Positions 585 to 18,841 of a stretch of DNA of 20,259 nucleotides are shown here, in pieces. Made by a program: the position numbers and the translations under genes. The stretch comes from a virus (lineage: Duplodnaviria > Heunggongvirae > Uroviricota > Caudoviricetes): IMG/VR virus record IMGVR_UViG_2541047882_000008; one strand, written 5' to 3'. How positions within the stretch are numbered: the stretch's first letter is position 1; each line of letters begins with the position of its first letter. The notes under the pieces are model-generated. The model was given only the letters and a program-made list of their open reading frames with translations, was not told the DNA's origin and searched no databases.

Positions 585-645
585 TGGCGGAGAGAGGGGG
601 ATTTGAACCCCCGGTAGAGTTGCCCCTACTCCGGTTTTCGAGACC
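585..645 (-). other. Orphan 3' fragment (61 nt) of a tRNA-Ser(CGA)-like gene: anticodon stem-loop, long variable arm, T-arm and CCA end; 5' half absent
   Basis: Minus strand reads GGTCTCGAAAACCGGAGTAGGGGCAACTCTACCGGGGGTTCAAATCCCCCTCTCTCCGCCA, matching my recollection of the 3' part of E. coli serU; sequence upstream of the anticodon stem is unrelated, so no acceptor/D arm. Confidence 0.6.
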
Positions 646-1388
646 GATGATACAGAGTCGAAAAATCAAAGAGTTAAAAATTTTTCTTGGAATAAATGTC
701 TTTAAATCGTACACGAAAAATCAATGAATTACATAACATTAAAGAAGAATATTCCAAGCCTTCTTGAGGCTACCACCTGTTTTCAGGTGTCATTCAGACG
801 TGATTTGCCCCAGATTGGGAAAGCACGCTTTTTTCTCAGCTATCGTCCTCTTATTTTGCCGTTACATTTCTTTTTGCACTCTAATGATTAATTTACAATA
901 ATAATATCGGTAATTATTGAGTAATAATAAATTGATTATTGCAAATGTAATTTAATTCCATCTTAGCGTTATATTCCAATCTTTAATCTCCGCATGGAAC
1001 AAGTTGCATGCGTGACTATATTAAGACAACTTATAACCACCAAAACATTTGCTTTGCAAGCAAAAACAGTGACCATTGACTCTAAGAAAATTCCGATCTA
1101 TTGTTAGGGTCATCAAAGTTACTTAACAGTATTCCGAAATGAAAATACAAAGCAAGCTAATTGTCTTATTAAACATTATTATTGCATTTATATTATTTGA
1201 GCTTTTAGCTCAAAAATTTGGTTTGAGTACATTATTTTAAAGCAAGGTAAACAATATCGGGCACTCTAGTTTTTATAATTAACAATTAAACGTCCATAAA
1301 ATGTTATTTACTTTTCTTCGCTATTGTCACATCTTAATATAGTGGCTTACGCCACTCTACTTTCATCACATTTTGTACGTTTATGTAC

Positions 1389-1504: not shown

Positions 1505-2086
1505 TTACCCTATAGGTGCTACTGGCCATTCAATATCCTGTGCAGTTGACGTATCAACACGGTTCAGCAATACCCGATACTTTTTCCAGGCTTCCAGCAA
1601 CAAGGTTTCTTCCTCCGTTGCGATTTCCAGATCCACAGCATCCTGAAGCGGCGCTATATGCTCACTGGCTACCTGCATCAGGCTGTTTTTTGTTTCTTCC
1701 ACCTCCCGGATCCGGAACAGTTTTTCTGCTTCCGTATCCTTCACCCAGGCTGTGCCGTTCCACTTCTGAAACTCCCCTTCCGGGGATAACCAGGTAACAT
1801 TTTCCGGTAATGAGCCGAGTTCAGAAATAAATAACGCGTCCCCTGATGCCACGTCATAAACTGTTTTACCCCGATGGTCTTCAACAAGATGCCACGATGA
1901 CTCATCACTGTTGAAAACAGCCACGAAGCCAGCCGGAATATCTGGCGGTGCAATATCGGTACTGTTTGCTGGCAGACCTGTATGAGGCGGAATATATGCA
2001 TCACCTTCACCAATAAATTCATTAGTTCCGGCCAGCAGATTATAAATTTTTATGGTCCGTGGTTGTTCACTCATTCTGAATGCCAT
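1505..2086 (-). CDS. tfa: Tail fibre assembly protein Tfa (193 aa)
   Basis: Translation [24 protein letters not shown]... matches lambda Tfa from memory; ATG overlaps the TAA of the out-of-frame stf C-terminal segment (TAATG). Confidence 0.85.
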
Positions 2087-2096
2087 TATGCAAGCC

Positions 2097-4031
2097 TCAC
2101 AATATAGTTAAATGCGATGTTTTTGACGGTGTTTTCCGCGTTACCAGCAGCGTTAACGGTGATGGTGTGTCCGTGTGAGCCAATCGCAACGGAGTGCGTA
2201 TGAGCACCAATACCGACAGTATGTGCATGTGCGCCTGCGCTTGCAGCAGTGCCGGACAGCGAGTGGGTACCCGACCATTCGCATTATCATTAGCTGCTTT
2301 CACTGCTTTCGGTGTCGCGGCAAGCGTTTCAGATGCGCTGTTGGTTGCACTACTGAGCTGGACAATTCCTTTTTGTGCTGTCGTAGCGTCCTGAGCAGTA
2401 TATTTCCCGTTAGCAAGGTCATAGGCTGCCTTTACCGACTTTGGCGTTGCCGCCAGCATTTCAGATGTGCTGTTGGTCGCGTTGCTAAGCTGAACTATCC
2501 CTTTCTGTGCTGTCGTTGCATCCTGTGCGGTGTATTTCCCGTTAGCCAGCTCATACGCGGCCTTAACGGCTTTTGGCGTTGCCGCCAGTGACTCGGAAGT
2601 GCTGTTAGTCGCACTGCTGAGCTGTACTATCCCCTTTTTCGTCGTGCTCGCATCCTCAAGCGCCACGGCGGATGCAATATCCTCTGCCCGTTTTGCTGCT
2701 GTCTCGGCGCGCGTTGCCGCGGATTCCGCCGTACTTTTGCTCTGAGCTGCCGCCGTCGCACTGCCAGCTGCCTCTGTCGCCTTCGTGGATGCCGTCGTGG
2801 CGCTGCCCTTCGCTGCTGACGCCTGTCTGGTCGCCTCATCTTTTGAAGCAGACGCCGATGATGCCGATGACGCCGCCGAACTGGCTGACGATGCGGCAGC
2901 CGTTTTTGAGGATTCTGCGCTGGTTTCCGACGCTTTCGCGTTCGTTTCGGATGTCTTCGCTGCGGAAGCTGACCTCGCTGCTGCCGTGGCCTGTTCAGTG
3001 GCTTCGCCAGCCTTCGTTGTGGCTGTTGAAGCGGATGATGCGGCGCTTTCTGCCGACTTTCCGGCAGCGGTGGCACTGGCTGAGGCCTGCCCGGCATTTG
3101 TTGACGCGGCGCTGGCAGATGAGGCAGCCGCTGTTTTTGAGTCTGCTGCTGCGGAGGCACTCTGTGCTGCTGCCGTCTCAGAAGACTTAGCGTTCGTCTC
3201 GGACGTTTTTGCCGCCTTCGCGGAATTTCCTGCCGCTGTTGCCGAGGAGGCTGCACTACTGGCGCTCGAGGCTGCGCTCGTTTCTGATGATTTTGCCGCC
3301 TCTTTTGAGGCCGCCGCATCCCGGGCTGAGGTGGCAGCTTCTGACGCCTTCGTGGTCGCGGCGGATGCAGAAGTGGCTGCTGATTGTTGTGACGCTGCCG
3401 CATTCGTTTCTGACGTTTTCGCCGCAGCGGCACTGGTAGCTGCCGCGCTTTTTGAGGACTCTGCAGCAGCAGCACTTTTCGATGCTTCACTGGCCTTTGT
3501 TGATGCCGTTCCTGCGCTGGAAGATGCTGACTGAGCAGATGATGCAGCCTGTCCGGCTGACGTGCTGGCGGCACGAGCTGAGCCTGCAGCATCGGTTGTA
3601 TGAGTTGCCGCCTCACTGGCAGATGTGCTGGCATCACTGGCTGACTTCTTCGCGGCTGCCGTGTTCTGTGCCACTGCGGACGCGTTACGCGCCACCTCTT
3701 CCACCATCAGTTCAAAACGGCGCAGAGCCTCCGGACGGGCATCATCCTCCGTCATGGCACCGAGAAAATCATTCAGCGTACCGGGTCGGGAATCTTCATA
3801 CACGGTGATGGTCCCGGCATGTGACGGCGGGAATCCTTCCACCAACAGAATAACGCTGTACTGACCGTACTCAACGTCCATGCTGTAACGCCCGGCTTCA
3901 TCCGGATTTTCTGAGGCCAGCGTGTTCACCACCACCGCGGTGCTGTTACGTTTTGCTTTCAGCTGGATTGTGCAGTTCTGTACCGGTTTTCCTGTGCCGT
4001 CTTTCAGTACACCTGAAATCTTTACTGCCAT
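2097..4031 (-). CDS. stf: Side tail fibre protein Stf, lambda-type N-terminus, Ala/Ser/Thr-rich shaft, collagen-like repeats; C-terminal ~62 codons are encoded in a different frame (frameshifted / internally deleted, probably non-functional)
   Basis: N-terminus [26 protein letters not shown] matches lambda Stf; last ~63 codons of this ORF are low-quality sequence, while the alternative frame from ~2273 to 2089 encodes [62 protein letters not shown], the canonical Stf C-terminus. Confidence 0.75.
2292..2636 (-). repeat. Tandem in-frame ~132-bp repeats (about 2.6 copies) inside stf, encoding [42 protein letters not shown]
   Basis: Three near-identical 44-aa units visible in the translation and as nucleotide repeats. 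Confidence 0.8.
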
Positions 4032-4041
4032 ATTCACCCCA

Positions 4042-4095: not shown

Positions 4096-4365
4096 TCAGA
4101 ACTTATAACCGACACCCACGATGAAACCGTCAGTGCGCCAGTCGCCACTGCCGGAGCCTTCATAAGCAATATCAATGGCCACGGATTCGGTCGGGTTAAA
4201 CTGCACGCCAGCTCCCCACGCCAGAGACGTGTTGCTGTGGCGACCGTCATCACTTCCGGTCAGCACGTCGTGCGTTTTCCCCTTGTTGTCAGTTACGCGG
4301 AGATAATCCCCGGAGAAAGTCGACACACGGCTGTAAGCCACACCCGCCATCGCATACGCGCTGAA
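4096..4365 (-). pseudogene. lom: 3' remnant of lom (Ail/OmpX/Lom outer-membrane protein family); N-terminal part deleted at the junction with the ylcI region
   Basis: C-terminal translation ...YAMAGVAYSRVSTFSGDYLRVTDNKGKTHDVLTGSDDGRHSNTSLAWGAGVQFNPTESVAIDIAYEGSGSGDWRTDGFIVGVGYKF has the aromatic C-terminal beta-strand typical of Lom; upstream part of the ORF is unrelated and overlaps ylcI. Confidence 0.6.
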
Positions 4366-4369
4366 CCTC

Positions 4370-5921: not shown

Positions 5922-6215
5922 ATGAAAAAAATGCTACTCGCTACTGCGCTGGCCCTGCTTATTACAGGATGTGCTCAACAGACGTTTACTGTTCAAAACA
6001 AACCGGCAGCAGTAGCACCAAAGGAAACCATCACCCATCATTTCTTCGTTTCTGGAATTGGGCAGAAGAAAACTGTCGATGCAGCCAAAATTTGTGGCGG
6101 CGCAGAAAATGTTGTTAAAACAGAAACCCAGCAAACATTCGTAAATGGATTGCTCGGTTTTATTACTTTAGGCATTTATACTCCGCTGGAAGCGCGTGTG
6201 TATTGCTCACAATAA
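5922..6215 (+). CDS. bor: Bor lipoprotein (serum-resistance-associated outer membrane lipoprotein, 97 aa)
   Basis: Signal peptide plus lipobox LITGC; sequence and length match lambda Bor; placed opposite to the lysis genes as in lambda. Confidence 0.8.
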   Translation: MKKMLLATALALLITGCAQQTFTVQNKPAAVAPKETITHHFFVSGIGQKKTVDAAKICGGAENVVKTETQQTFVNGLLGFITLGIYTPLEARVYCSQ

Positions 6216-7575: not shown

Positions 7576-8004
7576 TTTAAGCTGTGTGACGAAGTAACCA
7601 CTCTTAACAGCATAACCAATTTTTTACGTACGTAAACCACTAAATGATATTTGCGAGAATGCTACCGAGTATTGAAAACACCACTACAAATACATAAGCA
7701 AATCTCAACAAATAACCAACAAATAATTTCCAGCGTTATTTTTAGCTGGTTTAAATTGAATCTTCAAATTATAGAGCACTTATAAATAACAGCCATTAAT
7801 ATAAATTGGCTAATAGATTTATTTTTATTCAGCCAAGAGCCATGAATAGGATTCGATAGAAAAAGTTCAGATAAAAATAGAGATCTACTTCACAAATCAA
7901 ATGAGAAACCAAAACTTACATCTTGAAATAATCACATTGATTAGATGAATATTTATCGCGCAGTGACATCATTTTTTAATAATAGTTCAAAAAAAGGGCT
8001 CACG

Positions 8005-9087
8005 ATGAAAAAATTAACAGTGGCAATTTCTGCTGTAGCTGCATCAGTACTGATGGCGATGTCTGCTCAGGCAGCTGAAATTTATAATAAAGACAGTAAC
8101 AAGCTGGATCTGTACGGGAAAGTTAATGCTAAGCACTACTTCTCCTCTAATGATGCAGATGATGGTGATACTACTTATGCCCGTCTTGGCTTCAAAGGTG
8201 AAACCCAAATCAACGATCAACTGACTGGTTTCGGTCAGTGGGAATATGAATTCAAAGGCAACCGCGCTGAATCTCAAGGTTCCTCCAAAGATAAAACCCG
8301 TCTTGCCTTCGCTGGCCTGAAATTCGGTGACTACGGCTCCATCGATTATGGCCGTAACTACGGTGTAGCATACGATATTGGTGCATGGACCGACGTTCTG
8401 CCAGAATTCGGTGGCGATACCTGGACCCAAACAGATGTATTCATGACTGGTCGCACCACAGGTGTTGCAACTTATCGTAACAATGACTTCTTTGGTCTGG
8501 TTGATGGTCTGAACTTTGCTGCTCAGTATCAGGGTAAAAATGACCGCACTGACGTAACTGAAGCTAATGGTGATGGTTTCGGTTTCTCCACTACTTATGA
8601 GTATGAAGGATTCGGTGTAGGTGCAACCTATGCTAAATCTGACCGCACTAATAATCAGGTTATCTACGGTAACAACAGCCTGAATGCATCTGGTCAAAAT
8701 GCTGAAGTATGGGCAGCTGGTCTGAAATATGATGCGAACAACATCTATCTGGCTACCACCTATTCTGAAACCCAGAACATGACTGTTTTTGGTAATAACC
8801 ATATTGCCAACAAAGCACAAAACTTCGAAGTAGTTGCACAATATCAGTTCGACTTCGGTCTGCGTCCGTCCGTTGCTTACCTGCAATCTAAAGGAAAAGA
8901 CTTGGGTGCGTGGGGTGATCAGGACCTGGTTGAATATATTGATGTAGGTGCAACCTATTACTTCAACAAAAATATGTCCACTTTTGTTGATTACAAAATC
9001 AACCTGATTGATAAGAGCGATTTCACGAAAGCATCTGGCGTTGCTACCGATGATATCGTTGCTGTAGGTATGGTTTACCAGTTCTAA
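8005..9087 (+). CDS. nmpC: OmpC-family general porin (NmpC / OmpD / Lc-like), phage-borne moron (360 aa from MKKLTVAIS; ORF track starts at 7945)
   Basis: Signal peptide ending [10 protein letters not shown], porin-typical beta-barrel sequence ending in aromatic YQF; located between Q and S on the opposite strand, as nmpC in DLP12. Confidence 0.8.
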
Positions 9088-9275: not shown

Positions 9276-9659
9276 TTAATTAGAGTTATTAACAACGATA
9301 TCCATCTCTAACCGGATATCTAATGCCATTAACATCCCTTCAATTATACCCTCAGCCTTCTGTAACCTTTTCCCGATATAACCATCAGAGCAGCAATGCT
9401 TACCTGCCAGTGACATGAATGTCATACCGACTACATAATAATCTACTAATAAATCGTGCAAATCGCTGTTGTTCTTTTTCAGACGGGCCATGCACCCGCA
9501 AATGATCATCGCGTCATCGTCACAACATTGCGGGCGAGATTTTACTTTTGAAGTAATTAATCCCTTAAAACCGGCGGCAATGGACGACCAGGTCACATCT
9601 TCATGATTATTAGCCGCCCACGCTCCCCAACGCTCAAGAACCATCTGAATATCACGCAT
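9276..9659 (-). CDS. quuD: Late-gene antiterminator Q (phage 82/21 / QuuD type, 127 aa)
   Basis: Translation [24 protein letters not shown]... with Cys-rich zinc-binding region, positioned between rusA/ylcG and the lysis cassette. Confidence 0.7.
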
Positions 9660-9744
9660 CAACTTACTCCACAAAAATCAGACCAGAACGCCAATTACAA
9701 GCAAAAATCAATAAAACAGTATTAGTTGATTGTTATCTCTGACT

Positions 9745-9882
9745 TCATACTCCTGCTCCTGTCAGGGTTTTGGCGTAATTCCTCAGTATTCGGTAATCGG
9801 TCAAAACAGAACTGGGGAAACGATATAAGCGCAGGCGCATCCAGCGGTGGCGAAGAAGTTCTGCCATATTAAACTCAAACAT
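9745..9882 (-). CDS. ylcG: Small protein YlcG-like (46 aa), ATG overlapping the rusA stop
   Basis: [48 protein letters not shown] found by manual translation (below the ORF-track size cutoff); TGATG overlap with rusA. Confidence 0.55.
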   Translation of the reverse strand: MFEFNMAELLRHRWMRLRLYRFPSSVLTDYRILRNYAKTLTGAGV

Positions 9883-10244
9883 CATTCATTCCCCATTTCG
9901 GTGATGGTCAGTTCCAGCCTCCCACCTTTGGTAACAGGCATCTTCACAACGCGGTAATCAACGACCTGAGCATCATCCAGCCAGAAACCTGCTTTGGTGA
10001 GTGCGTCAAAAGCGGCTTTTTGCAGATTATCCAGGTCACGGCGACGGCGATCCGGCATGTGGCACTCAATACGGATTTTCACTGGCATAGCCAGGCCGAT
10101 ATCCAGCATTGCGTTTTTAATGATTCGGGTGACGTTATCGCGGTATGCCTGCCCTTCTGCGCTGATGTGTGTGCGCCCGCGATTATGGCGGTAATAGCGA
10201 TTATTGCTCGGAGGCCAGGGTAATGTGATGCTGTAGGTATTCAC
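9882..10244 (-). CDS. rusA: Holliday junction resolvase RusA (120 aa)
   Basis: Translation [36 protein letters not shown]... is the RusA family signature. Confidence 0.85.
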
Positions 10245-17574: not shown

Positions 17575-17793
17575 ATGTACTTGACACTTCAGGAGTGGAA
17601 CGCTCGCCAGCGACGCCCAAGAAGCCTTGAAACAGTTCGTCGATGGGTGCGCGAATGCAGGATATTCCCTCCTCCGGTTAAGGATGGAAGAGAATATCTG
17701 TTCCACGAATCAGCGGTAAAGGTTGACTTAAATCGACCAGTAACAGGTAGCCTTTTGAAGAGGATCAGAAATGGGAAGAAGGCGAAGTCATGA
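17575..17793 (+). CDS. xis: Excisionase Xis (72 aa), lambda type
   Basis: Translation MYLTLQEWNARQRRPRSLETVRRWVRECRIFPPPVKDGREYLFHESAVKVDLNRP... matches lambda Xis; overlaps int start. Confidence 0.9.
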   Translation: MYLTLQEWNARQRRPRSLETVRRWVRECRIFPPPVKDGREYLFHESAVKVDLNRPVTGSLLKRIRNGKKAKS

Positions 17794-18841
17794 GCGCCGG
17801 GATTTACCCCCTAACCTTTATATAAGAAACAATGGATATTACTGCTACAGGGACCCAAGGACGGGTAAAGAGTTTGGATTAGGCCGAGACAGGCGAATCG
17901 CAATCACTGAAGCTATACAGGCCAACATTGAGTTATTTTCAGGACACAAACACAAGCCTCTGACAGCGAGAATCAACAGTGATAATTCCGTTACGTTACA
18001 TTCATGGCTTGATCGCTACGAAAAAATCCTGGCCAGCAGAGGAATCAAGCAGAAGACACTCATAAATTACATGAGCAAAATTAAAGCAATAAGGAGGGGT
18101 CTGCCTGATGCTCCACTTGAAGACATCACCACAAAAGAAATTGCGGCAATGCTCAATGGATACATAGACGAGGGAAAGGCGGCATCAGCCAAGTTAATCA
18201 GATCAACACTGAGCGATGCATTCCGAGAGGCTATGGCTGAAGGCCATATAACAACAAACCCGGTCGCAGCCACTCGCGCTGCAAAATCAGAGGTAAGGAG
18301 ATCAAGACTTACGGCTGACGAATACCTGAAAATTTATCAAGCAGCAGAATCATCACCATGTTGGCTTAGACTTGCAATGGAACTGGCTGTTGTTACCGGG
18401 CAGCGAGTTGGTGATTTATGCGAAATGAAGTGGTCTGATATCGTAGATGGATATCTTTATGTCGAGCAAAGCAAAACAGGCGTAAAAATTGCCATCCCAA
18501 CAACATTGCATGTTGATGCTCTCGGGATATCAATGAAGGAAACACTTGATAAATGCAAAAAGATTCTTGGCGGAGAAACCATAATTGCATCTACTCGTCG
18601 TGAACCGCTTTCATCCGGCACAGTATCAAGGTATTTTATGCGCGCACGAAAAGCATCAGGTCTCTCCTTCGAAGGGGATCCGCCAACCTTTCACGAGTTG
18701 CGCAGTTTGTCTGCAAGACTCTATGAGAAGCAGATAAGCGATAAATTTGCTCAACATCTTCTCGGGCATAAGTCGGACACCATGGCATCACAGTATCGTG
18801 ATGACAGAGGCAGGGAGTGGGACAAAATTGAAATCAAATAA
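17771..18841 (+). CDS. int: Tyrosine integrase Int (356 aa), essentially lambda Int
   Basis: Translation MGRRRSHERRDLPPNLYIRNNGYYCYRDPRTGKEFGLGRDRRIAITEAIQANIELFSGHKHKPL... through ...HLLGHKSDTMASQYRDDRGREWDKIEIK matches lambda Int from memory, including catalytic R-K-H-R-H-Y region. Confidence 0.95.
   Translation: MGRRRSHERRDLPPNLYIRNNGYYCYRDPRTGKEFGLGRDRRIAITEAIQANIELFSGHKHKPLTARINSDNSVTLHSWLDRYEKILASRGIKQKTLINYMSKIKAIRRGLPDAPLEDITTKEIAAMLNGYIDEGKAASAKLIRSTLSDAFREAMAEGHITTNPVAATRAAKSEVRRSRLTADEYLKIYQAAESSPCWLRLAMELAVVTGQRVGDLCEMKWSDIVDGYLYVEQSKTGVKIAIPTTLHVDALGISMKETLDKCKKILGGETIIASTRREPLSSGTVSRYFMRARKASGLSFEGDPPTFHELRSLSARLYEKQISDKFAQHLLGHKSDTMASQYRDDRGREWDKIEIK

Follow-up and report, generated by a model that had tools for sequence, protein, structure and literature searches.

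Internal deletion of a side tail fibre gene in a cryptic lambdoid prophage and a recurrent TA breakpoint in related loci

The side tail fibre gene (stf) of the viral record IMGVR_UViG_2541047882_000008, analysed here over its whole stretch of 20,259 nucleotides (nt; hereafter the window), raises the question of how the conserved C-terminus of a fibre came to lie in a different reading frame from the rest of the protein, directly in front of the tail fibre assembly gene tfa. A first-pass annotation, made from the sequence alone, had suggested an internal deletion with a frameshift at a recombination joint, and had named a sequencing error and programmed frameshifting as other possibilities. In the present study the locus was compared with complete genomes and with related loci from metagenomes. 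The best overall explanation that emerged, to which we assign a probability of about 80%, combines a deletion pseudogene of stf with a hot spot of conservative site-specific recombination.

An internal deletion in stf

On the minus strand of the window an open reading frame (ORF) extends from the ATG at 4031 to the TGA at 2099-2097 (stf 4031..2097). Its product would consist of 644 amino acids (aa), i.e. 589 native residues followed by 55 out-of-frame ones; a GTG at 4037, upstream of this ATG, gives the 646-aa version of the protein. The conserved C-terminus is encoded in the -1 frame, in which three stop codons (TAA-TGA-TAA, at 2292-2284) are located 5 codons upstream of the 3' remnant. The TAA of this remnant (2088-2086) overlaps the ATG of tfa (2086-2084) to form the sequence TAATG (2088-2084), exactly as first described. 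What had then been called low-quality sequence at the end of the long frame is this same C-terminus, read out of frame.

A 2,601-bp query from the window was compared by megablast with 5,426 complete genomes of Escherichia coli. Strains EC416, PEC1009, NCTC9040 and 1332KP carry the intact gene: they match the query in two pieces spanning 3,619 bp, with an identity of 100% in the first three and 99.9% in 1332KP. The base-by-base comparison was limited to EC416 and PEC1009, both of which carry an intact stf coding sequence (CDS) of 2,964 bp, encoding the 987-aa protein WP_000279081.1 and followed by an identical tfa (at the DNA level, tfa of the window is 100% identical to the EC416 gene for WP_000885613.1). 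Relative to these two strains stf of the window is shorter by exactly 1,018 bp, the gap being placed between two TACC tetramers with flanks of 100% identity. At the joint the left parent reads …AATGGTCGGGTACC/TTCTGCCCG and the right parent …GGTGCTCATACC/CACTCGCTG (here and below, a slash within a sequence marks the joint). The upstream site corresponds to stf codons 588/589 (…AAT GGT CGG GTA CC/T TCT…), and the downstream one, 1,018 bp further on, to codons 927/928 (…GCT CAT ACC/ CAC TCG…), within a region of GxHxH repeats. The long frame is identical to the intact orthologue through residue 589, and the -1 frame over its last 60 residues (928-987). The switch of frame was found at 2266-2269, inside the interval (2265-2285) to which the break had been assigned.

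Since 1,018 equals 3 x 339 + 1, a single deletion explains both the missing centre of the protein (residues 590-927) and the change of frame, and the proposal of an internal deletion at a recombination joint was borne out in the form of one gap between identical flanks. Both features expected of a pseudogene formed by internal deletion, i.e. an intact orthologue with identical flanks and a missing length that is not a multiple of three, were found, and we have hardly any doubt that stf of the window is such a pseudogene. In an ancestral prophage identical to that of PEC1009 and EC416, two TA(CC) sites were joined by one recombination event.

The intact 987-aa orthologue contains the prophage tail fibre N-terminal domain (PF08400, residues 1-134), three Phage_fiber_2 repeats (PF03406, residues 462-590), a Collar domain (PF07484, residues 761-808) and the GxHxH repeats. 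Of these, the product of the window retains only PF08400 (residues 1-134, E 2.3e-71) and the three 44-aa PF03406 repeats (…LAATPKAVK…; residues 462-590, E 6.6e-53), as revealed by Pfam analysis, the Collar domain having been deleted. The removed residues 590-927 are the distal, receptor-binding part of the fibre, which includes the collar domain; that a central receptor-binding portion was missing had been suspected from the start. The gene therefore displays the N-terminal domain, the fibre repeats and the tfa overlap typical of stf, without the distal part in frame. The repeat region that precedes the Phage_fiber_2 repeats had been taken for collagen-like; it is composed of 38% Ala, 25% Ser and 12% Thr (75% in total) with 2.8% Gly, and no Gly-X-Y run is present in it.

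None of the 5,426 complete E. coli genomes spans the stf joint of the window. A 43-mer across the joint was absent from the contigs of species-representative genomes and from metagenome contigs, and no record of the 644-aa product was found. The deletion of 1,018 bp is a private feature of this genome. Such uniqueness is also what an assembly or sequencing artefact would produce, in which case the real genome would contain an intact 2,964-bp gene. We consider this highly improbable, as the flanks are 100% identical on both sides and the gap amounts to 1,018 bp rather than one base, so that a one-base correction of the kind first envisaged still leaves 339 codons missing. Moreover, the longest repeat common to both breakpoints is 7 nt and out of register; the assembler had nothing to collapse because no flanking repeat exceeds this length. 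The same kind of TA joint is also present in the finished genomes of NCTC9087 and 23CRST021.

Programmed -1 ribosomal frameshifting, by which the two frames would be joined into a functional short fibre, is the least probable of the explanations considered here. The C-terminal frame is indeed the -1 frame and retains its TAATG coupling to tfa, but the frame overlap, checked from 2300 to 2097, contains no X XXY YYZ heptamer, and the two-frame arrangement occurs in no relative. Furthermore, the product would even then lack the collar and distal domains, and the prophage has no tail for a fibre to join.

A recurrent breakpoint at one TA dinucleotide

The upstream breakpoint of the deletion lies in the sequence …GGTCGGG-TA-CCTTCTG…, in which the TA occupies positions 2269-2268 of the window. 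Strains NCTC9087, MS 124-1 and 23CRST021 break on the same bases as the window, with the joints …GGGGA-TA/CCTTCTG and …GCTGGC-TA/CCTTCTG. Further loci were gathered from metagenome and IMG/VR collections by means of the 29 nt located just 3' of this TA (in the 3' module, CCTTCTGCCCGTAAGG…) and also of the 36 nt located just 5' of it (in the 5' module, …AATGGTCGGGTA). The counts given below are based on 209 loci that contain the 3' module and at least 30 nt of upstream flank.

The context of the TA was intact in 176 of these loci, while 33 (approximately one in six) were rearranged at it. The rearranged loci represent 22 distinct upstream contexts fused at one point, and 21 of these contexts end in TA before CCTTCTG, the remaining one in CA. 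The 5' side was kept in two junctions, that of the window and that of locus L207, which brings the total to 24 distinct junctions at a single TA. Apart from that of the window there are thus 23, representing at least 22 other independent rearrangements.

The partners that are placed in the same orientation as stf include nu1, A, the head-tail adaptor gene W, L, lom and an H-like gene, the gene for the head protease, J (twice), and the N-terminus and repeat 1 of stf. Other junctions involve a ParB-like gene or the beginning of a P2-type fibre gene. There was one clear exception in orientation, the portal gene, which is inverted; among the partner contexts without a gene assignment, that of L098 is in the opposite orientation. 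Of the 18 native partner sites that could be recovered, 15 have T at position 0 and 16 have A at position +1 (about 15 have the complete TA), and their flanks share a weak consensus of approximately CGGR-TA-YCG; one internal partner site is CATACCCAC. In the products, base -1 is always that of the partner and base +2 always that of the hot site, i.e. the exchange never extends beyond two bases, and the same was observed in an unbiased sample.

As a control for ascertainment, we used a probe placed 369 nt downstream of the TA. It detected 31 loci broken at the TA and 5 events at 4 sites elsewhere in the 369 nt; immediately to the right of the TA there were none. If endpoints were distributed uniformly, clustering of this kind would have a tail probability of approximately 2e-34, a random endpoint falling on this tetramer or dinucleotide in about 0.3% of events. 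A natural module boundary at the TA was rejected, as the left and right halves are always linked in intact genes. It is close to certain that the TA is a real recombination hot spot of this stf module. No description of this breakpoint was found in a literature search.

Several further observations concern individual sites. A site in the J gene, GCAGCATG-TA-CCGG, is the partner in two different deletions (L102 and L217), and a second site in stf, GGGGAT/TACTGG, located 263 nt downstream of the hot TA, was joined to two different partners (L217 and L227). In L199 (IMGVR_UViG_2925939204_000004) the fusion is between the 3' module and codons 2-3 of a P2-type tail fibre gene (ATGAG-TA/CC), and therefore the stf module and the hot spot occur also in P2-like prophages. 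The upstream ORF of L199 is itself a fusion of a major-head N-terminus with a tail protein.

One fixed and one variable end, with either side kept, is a pattern known from deletions adjacent to insertion sequences (ISs). It could accordingly be supposed that an IS was once inserted at the TA, gave rise to adjacent deletions and inversions (or to rearrangements mediated by IS-excision-enhancer activity) and was then cleanly lost. The flanking GGG…CCC may resemble the GC-rich target preferences of ISs. However, no IS was detected at the site in any of the 209 loci. Draft contigs normally break at IS copies, yet a contig end within 45 nt of the site was found just once. In addition, the IS would have to have been lost cleanly in all 23 events, and twice in the case of the inversion described below. 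To an IS origin we give scarcely more credit than to an artefact.

Nature of the exchange and its candidate enzyme

Both sides of an event could be examined in two contigs of one metagenome (IMG 3300029469), L115 and L207. L115 carries the 3' portion of a portal gene and, after it, the capsid, Z and U genes, all of them inverted, with the joint …GGGCGCTG-TA/CCTTCTG. In L207, stf is linked through …GGTCGGG-TA/AGTGCCG to the 5' portion of that portal gene, which is also inverted. When the two portal halves were rebuilt through a single TA (P_L+TA+P_R), the resulting 302 nt showed a 100% match, in one ungapped piece, to genes annotated as "phage portal protein"; 475 records match this sequence at an identity of at least 99%, with complete genomes at 100%. 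L115 and L207 are therefore the two joints of one base-exact inversion between stf and the portal gene, in which no base was lost or gained.

The core of the exchange could be delimited further. In L112, L190 and L088 the partner differs from the TA core by one base (CA, TG and CA), and the product carries the core of either parent, which fits the outcome expected from a 2-nt heteroduplex. A four-base staggered exchange (gyrase type) was rejected, since products such as CTAC, TTAC and ATAC combine both parents within the GTAC. Nor does a crossover at a single point (integron or Xer type) fit, because the exchanges in L088, L190 and L112 are not placeable at one phosphodiester. All the data are accommodated by the 2-bp overlap that serine recombinases make, and a conservative 2-bp exchange at the TA is the probable mode of recombination. 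Of the features expected of serine recombinases, a fixed 2-bp core was found, and base-exact reciprocal products were found for one event; the site is not dyad-symmetric.

RecA-independent illegitimate recombination (slippage or alternative end joining on 4 bp of microhomology) could instead account for the 1,018-bp deletion, which would have fallen on the TACC by chance, with the clustering caused by a fragile or pause-prone sequence. The TACC at the joint is consistent with this explanation, as are the GGTT used by a second private deletion of the window, the 4-8 nt which several hot-site junctions share with the site, the presence of a few deletion endpoints elsewhere in the gene and the lack of dyad symmetry at the hot site. 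Nevertheless, such a process should produce neither 24 distinct junctions at a dinucleotide that a random endpoint would reach with a chance of about 0.3%, nor a base-perfect reciprocal inversion. The junctions of L088, L190, L112 and L006, with 0-2 nt of microhomology, are still placed at the TA, and the exchange was never displaced to either side. A hairpin or cruciform at the hot site was also rejected, as the z-scores of DNA folding (+0.63 and -0.34) were no better than those of shuffled sequences. As a whole, illegitimate recombination is an unlikely explanation, while the event in the window itself, given its 4-bp microhomology, may have been a chance deletion of this kind.

In the mechanism that we favour, conservative site-specific recombination of the serine-recombinase type, with a 2-bp overlap, would take place between the hot site and quasi-sites. 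The reciprocal product of the event in the window would be an excised circle of 1,018 bp, with the joint …GGTGCTCA-TA-CCTTCTGCCCG…. A candidate enzyme is the PinQ/PinR-type recombinase encoded beside tfa in many relatives. A gene for a 196-aa serine recombinase of this type, convergent and placed just after tfa, was identified in 26 of the 93 loci with enough sequence (about 28%), and rearrangement events were found in 9 of the 26 pin-positive loci vs 7 of the 67 pin-negative ones (Fisher p = 0.012). The pin gene lies at +1.85 to +2.46 kb from the hot site (e.g. in L128, L027 and L184).

Several points speak against this mechanism. The association with pin is weak and confounded by prophage lineage, and no serine recombinase gene or pin homologue was found in the window. 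Dyad symmetry is absent from the hot site: when its left half (CGAATGGTCGGG) is compared with the reverse-complemented right half (ACGGGCAGAAGG), as read from the sequences, 2 of 12 positions agree. Nor does the site recur anywhere from -4 to +7 kb. The site is unlike the Din-type pix/hix consensus on which PinQ acts. The weak consensus of the partner sites could reflect imperfect homology to the hot site. Base conservation was demonstrated for a single event only; the joint of the window, with its 4 bp of microhomology, is by itself indistinguishable from ordinary illegitimate recombination, and the second private deletion (GGTT, no TA) indicates that such events also occurred in the lineage of the window. 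Finally, there is one clear inversion vs about 21 deletions, where a palindromic TA core should permit either outcome, although an inversion, unlike a deletion, can be undone.

Taking these points together, we rate the involvement of a serine recombinase at slightly less than an even chance. Tentatively, and with considerable doubt, the TA at codons 588/589 might be the preferred substrate of a prophage-borne enzyme, e.g. of the PinQ/PinR type, which would recombine it with TA-centred quasi-sites across the late operon, the pseudogene of the window being one of the products.

Arrangements known from invertible tail fibre systems were also considered. Aligned by eye with the 26-bp Din consensus TTCTCNNAAACC-NN-GGTTTNNGAGAA, with the e14 pix sites for comparison, the hot site shows 1-2 matches per half-site. 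A Din-type invertible segment requires a matching site with an inverted second copy and an adjacent invertase gene, neither of which was found for the window. A Din-type pix/hix site was thus rejected: the likeness of CCTTCT to the e14 repeat CCTTCTCCCAAACCAA is superficial, the Din core would be located 14 nt past the TA on its downstream side, and e14 carries fibre genes of a different type. An invertible segment was excluded because no inverted duplicate of the site was found between -4 and +7 kb. A mobile cassette composed of the stf 3' end, tfa and pin, with a defined right end, was rejected as well, as there are just two downstream contexts past pin; these are consistent with prophage ends, or two prophage insertion sites, rather than with transposition.

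There are closer parallels among known recombination systems. Iida and Hiestand-Nauer reportedly described, in 1986/87, quasi-sites of Cin (cixQ) with a fixed 2-bp core, at which mismatches yield the core of either parent. The loci analysed here resemble them in the fixed 2-bp core common to both partners, the recovery of either parental core, the formation of deletions as well as inversions, the location of the sites in or near tail fibre genes and the adjacent invertase gene. In contrast to Cin sites, neither the hot site nor any of the partner sites conforms to the Din consensus (TTCTCNNAAACC-NN-GGTTT…), which occurs at the pix sites of e14; the core is TA rather than AA/TT, and the enzyme is a candidate one. 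Deletions of the lambda b region promoted by Int are said to have been obtained by Parkinson and Davis (1971) between att and secondary att sites. They likewise have one fixed endpoint at a recombinase site and many weakly similar partners, and result in loss of phage DNA; however, they occur at att, with a 7-bp overlap made by a tyrosine recombinase, whereas here the fixed point lies in stf and the overlap is 2 bp.

The PinQ/PinE system of e14 is also similar, in that cryptic prophages encode, beside stf-tfa, a small serine recombinase which acts in trans to rearrange tail fibre genes, PinQ inverting the P segment of e14 (Kirigo et al. 2025, PMC12529663). It differs in having two inverted 16-bp repeats (CCTTCTCCCAAACCAA) and in generating functional chimeric proteins, while the hot site described here is single and asymmetric and its products are pseudogenes.

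The host prophage and the significance of the breakpoint

The coordinates of the stf-tfa region are summarized in Table 1.

Table 1. Features of the stf-tfa region of the window
Feature	Position	Strand	Basis
stf 5' part (codons 1-589): N-terminal domain, Ala/Ser/Thr-rich shaft, three Phage_fiber_2 repeats	2265..4031	-	protein identical to WP_000279081.1
Deletion joint: TACC (gene strand) common to both parents, 1,018 bp gone	2266..2269	-	comparison with the intact gene
Out-of-frame tail of the truncated ORF: 55 codons (TRCPALLQ…HLTIL) and TGA at 2099-2097	2097..2264	-	
Orphaned stf 3' end, -1 frame: codons 928-987 (THSLSG…NYIVRLA) and TAA at 2088-2086	2086..2268	-	aligns to the end of lambda orf-314
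tfa, tail fibre assembly gene, intact, 193 aa	1505..2086	-	PF02413, E 8e-43; phrog_105
lom remnant (Ail/Lom family, 3' part)	4096..4367	-	comparison with relatives

The whole window is a decayed cryptic lambdoid prophage, located beside ybhC and equipped with a lambda-type int. It contains a lambda-type int/xis region (int at 17771-18841) and a DLP12-like late region composed of rusA (9882-10244), quuD (9276-9674), an ompC/nmpC-like porin gene (7945-9087), lysis genes (7462-6247) and bor (5922-6215); all head and tail genes from nu1 to J have been lost. The 100% identical copy in PEC1009 is annotated as carrying a lambda-type int, xis, exo, a recT fragment, ybcN, ninE, ybcO, rusA and quuD, followed by an ompC-like porin gene, essD-rrrD-rzpD, bor, ybcV, ybcW and ylcI. 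Next come nohD, joined to a fragment of lom, and then stf and tfa; all genes from A to J are already absent. In the relatives, an AraC-type regulator follows past the left end of the window.

The second private deletion, identified by comparison with EC416 and PEC1009, comprises 1,053 bp at 4364-4367, with GGTT as microhomology; cos, nohD (nu1) and the 5' portion of the lom remnant were lost through it. This joint, too, is spanned by none of the complete E. coli genomes. According to the annotations, the same prophage carries differing independent lesions in PEC1009, NCTC9087, 23CRST021 and MS 124-1: a terminase-A fragment is fused to the 3' 1.2 kb of stf in NCTC9087 and MS 124-1, and 23CRST021 has a 275-bp internal deletion in stf together with a nohD-stf fusion. 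The loci of NCTC9087, 23CRST021 and MS 124-1 (L005, L006 and L007) form a small decay series of one prophage. Before the loss of stf, the prophage would already have lacked the head and tail genes from nu1 to J, leaving the fibre without a virion to join; the loss was probably neutral because there was nothing to which the fibre could attach.

Two other matches were detected in the window. Positions 1545-1743 (minus strand), inside the tfa CDS, match the Rfam family IS009, a predicted small RNA of E. coli, with 218 bits vs a gathering score of 117. Approximately 65 nt at 585-650 (minus strand; …GGTTCAAATCCCCCTCTCTCCGCCA) resemble the 3' part of a class-II (Ser-like) transfer RNA (tRNA). ARAGORN detected no complete tRNA at 585-650, and the stretch may be an attachment site (att)-type duplication left by an old integration event.

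The first-pass annotation had likened the locus to the stf defect of laboratory lambda. In lambda PaPa, as in the window, stf is divided between an N-terminal ORF (orf-401 in lambda) and a C-terminal one in another frame (orf-314 in lambda), followed by tfa, with the break located just after the fibre-repeat region, and the window protein is 85% identical to orf-401 over residues 1-153. The likeness thus holds for the split gene and not for the lesion. The lambda split falls after the first fibre repeat, and according to Hendrix and Duda in 1992 it is reportedly a one-base frameshift by which no domain was lost. In contrast, the window has lost 1,018 bp (339 codons), its break follows the third repeat, and the host element is a cryptic prophage.

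The stf remnants of E. coli K-12 (stfQ in Qin, stfE in e14 and aaaD/tfaD in DLP12) reflect the same general decay, in which late-region deletions fuse packaging fragments to fibre 3' ends and tfa is often kept. The lesion of the window, unlike these, is internal to stf, and StfQ and StfR have other middle modules that do not contain the hot-site sequence. K-12 was therefore rejected as a model for the hot site.

For annotation, our results mean that the locus should be described as one stf pseudogene rather than as a 646-aa protein. A broken stf is by itself a biologically ordinary case of the routine decay of a cryptic prophage; it is the recurrent TA breakpoint that matters more. The decay of prophages is usually modelled as random deletion followed by selection, and the finding that 33 of 209 loci are rearranged at one dinucleotide calls this into question. 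An enzyme is hinted at by the conservative outcome of the single event for which both joints could be examined. If an enzyme is responsible, some prophage inactivation would be site-directed, which bears on the origin of cryptic prophages, on the frequent survival of stf-tfa fragments beside terminase fragments, and on the poorly understood Pin-type recombinases. If this is true, genes for tail fibres, tails, heads and packaging would be prone to one-step, base-precise deletion or inversion, which would constitute an enzyme-driven route to the repeated inactivation of lambdoid and P2-type prophages of E. coli.

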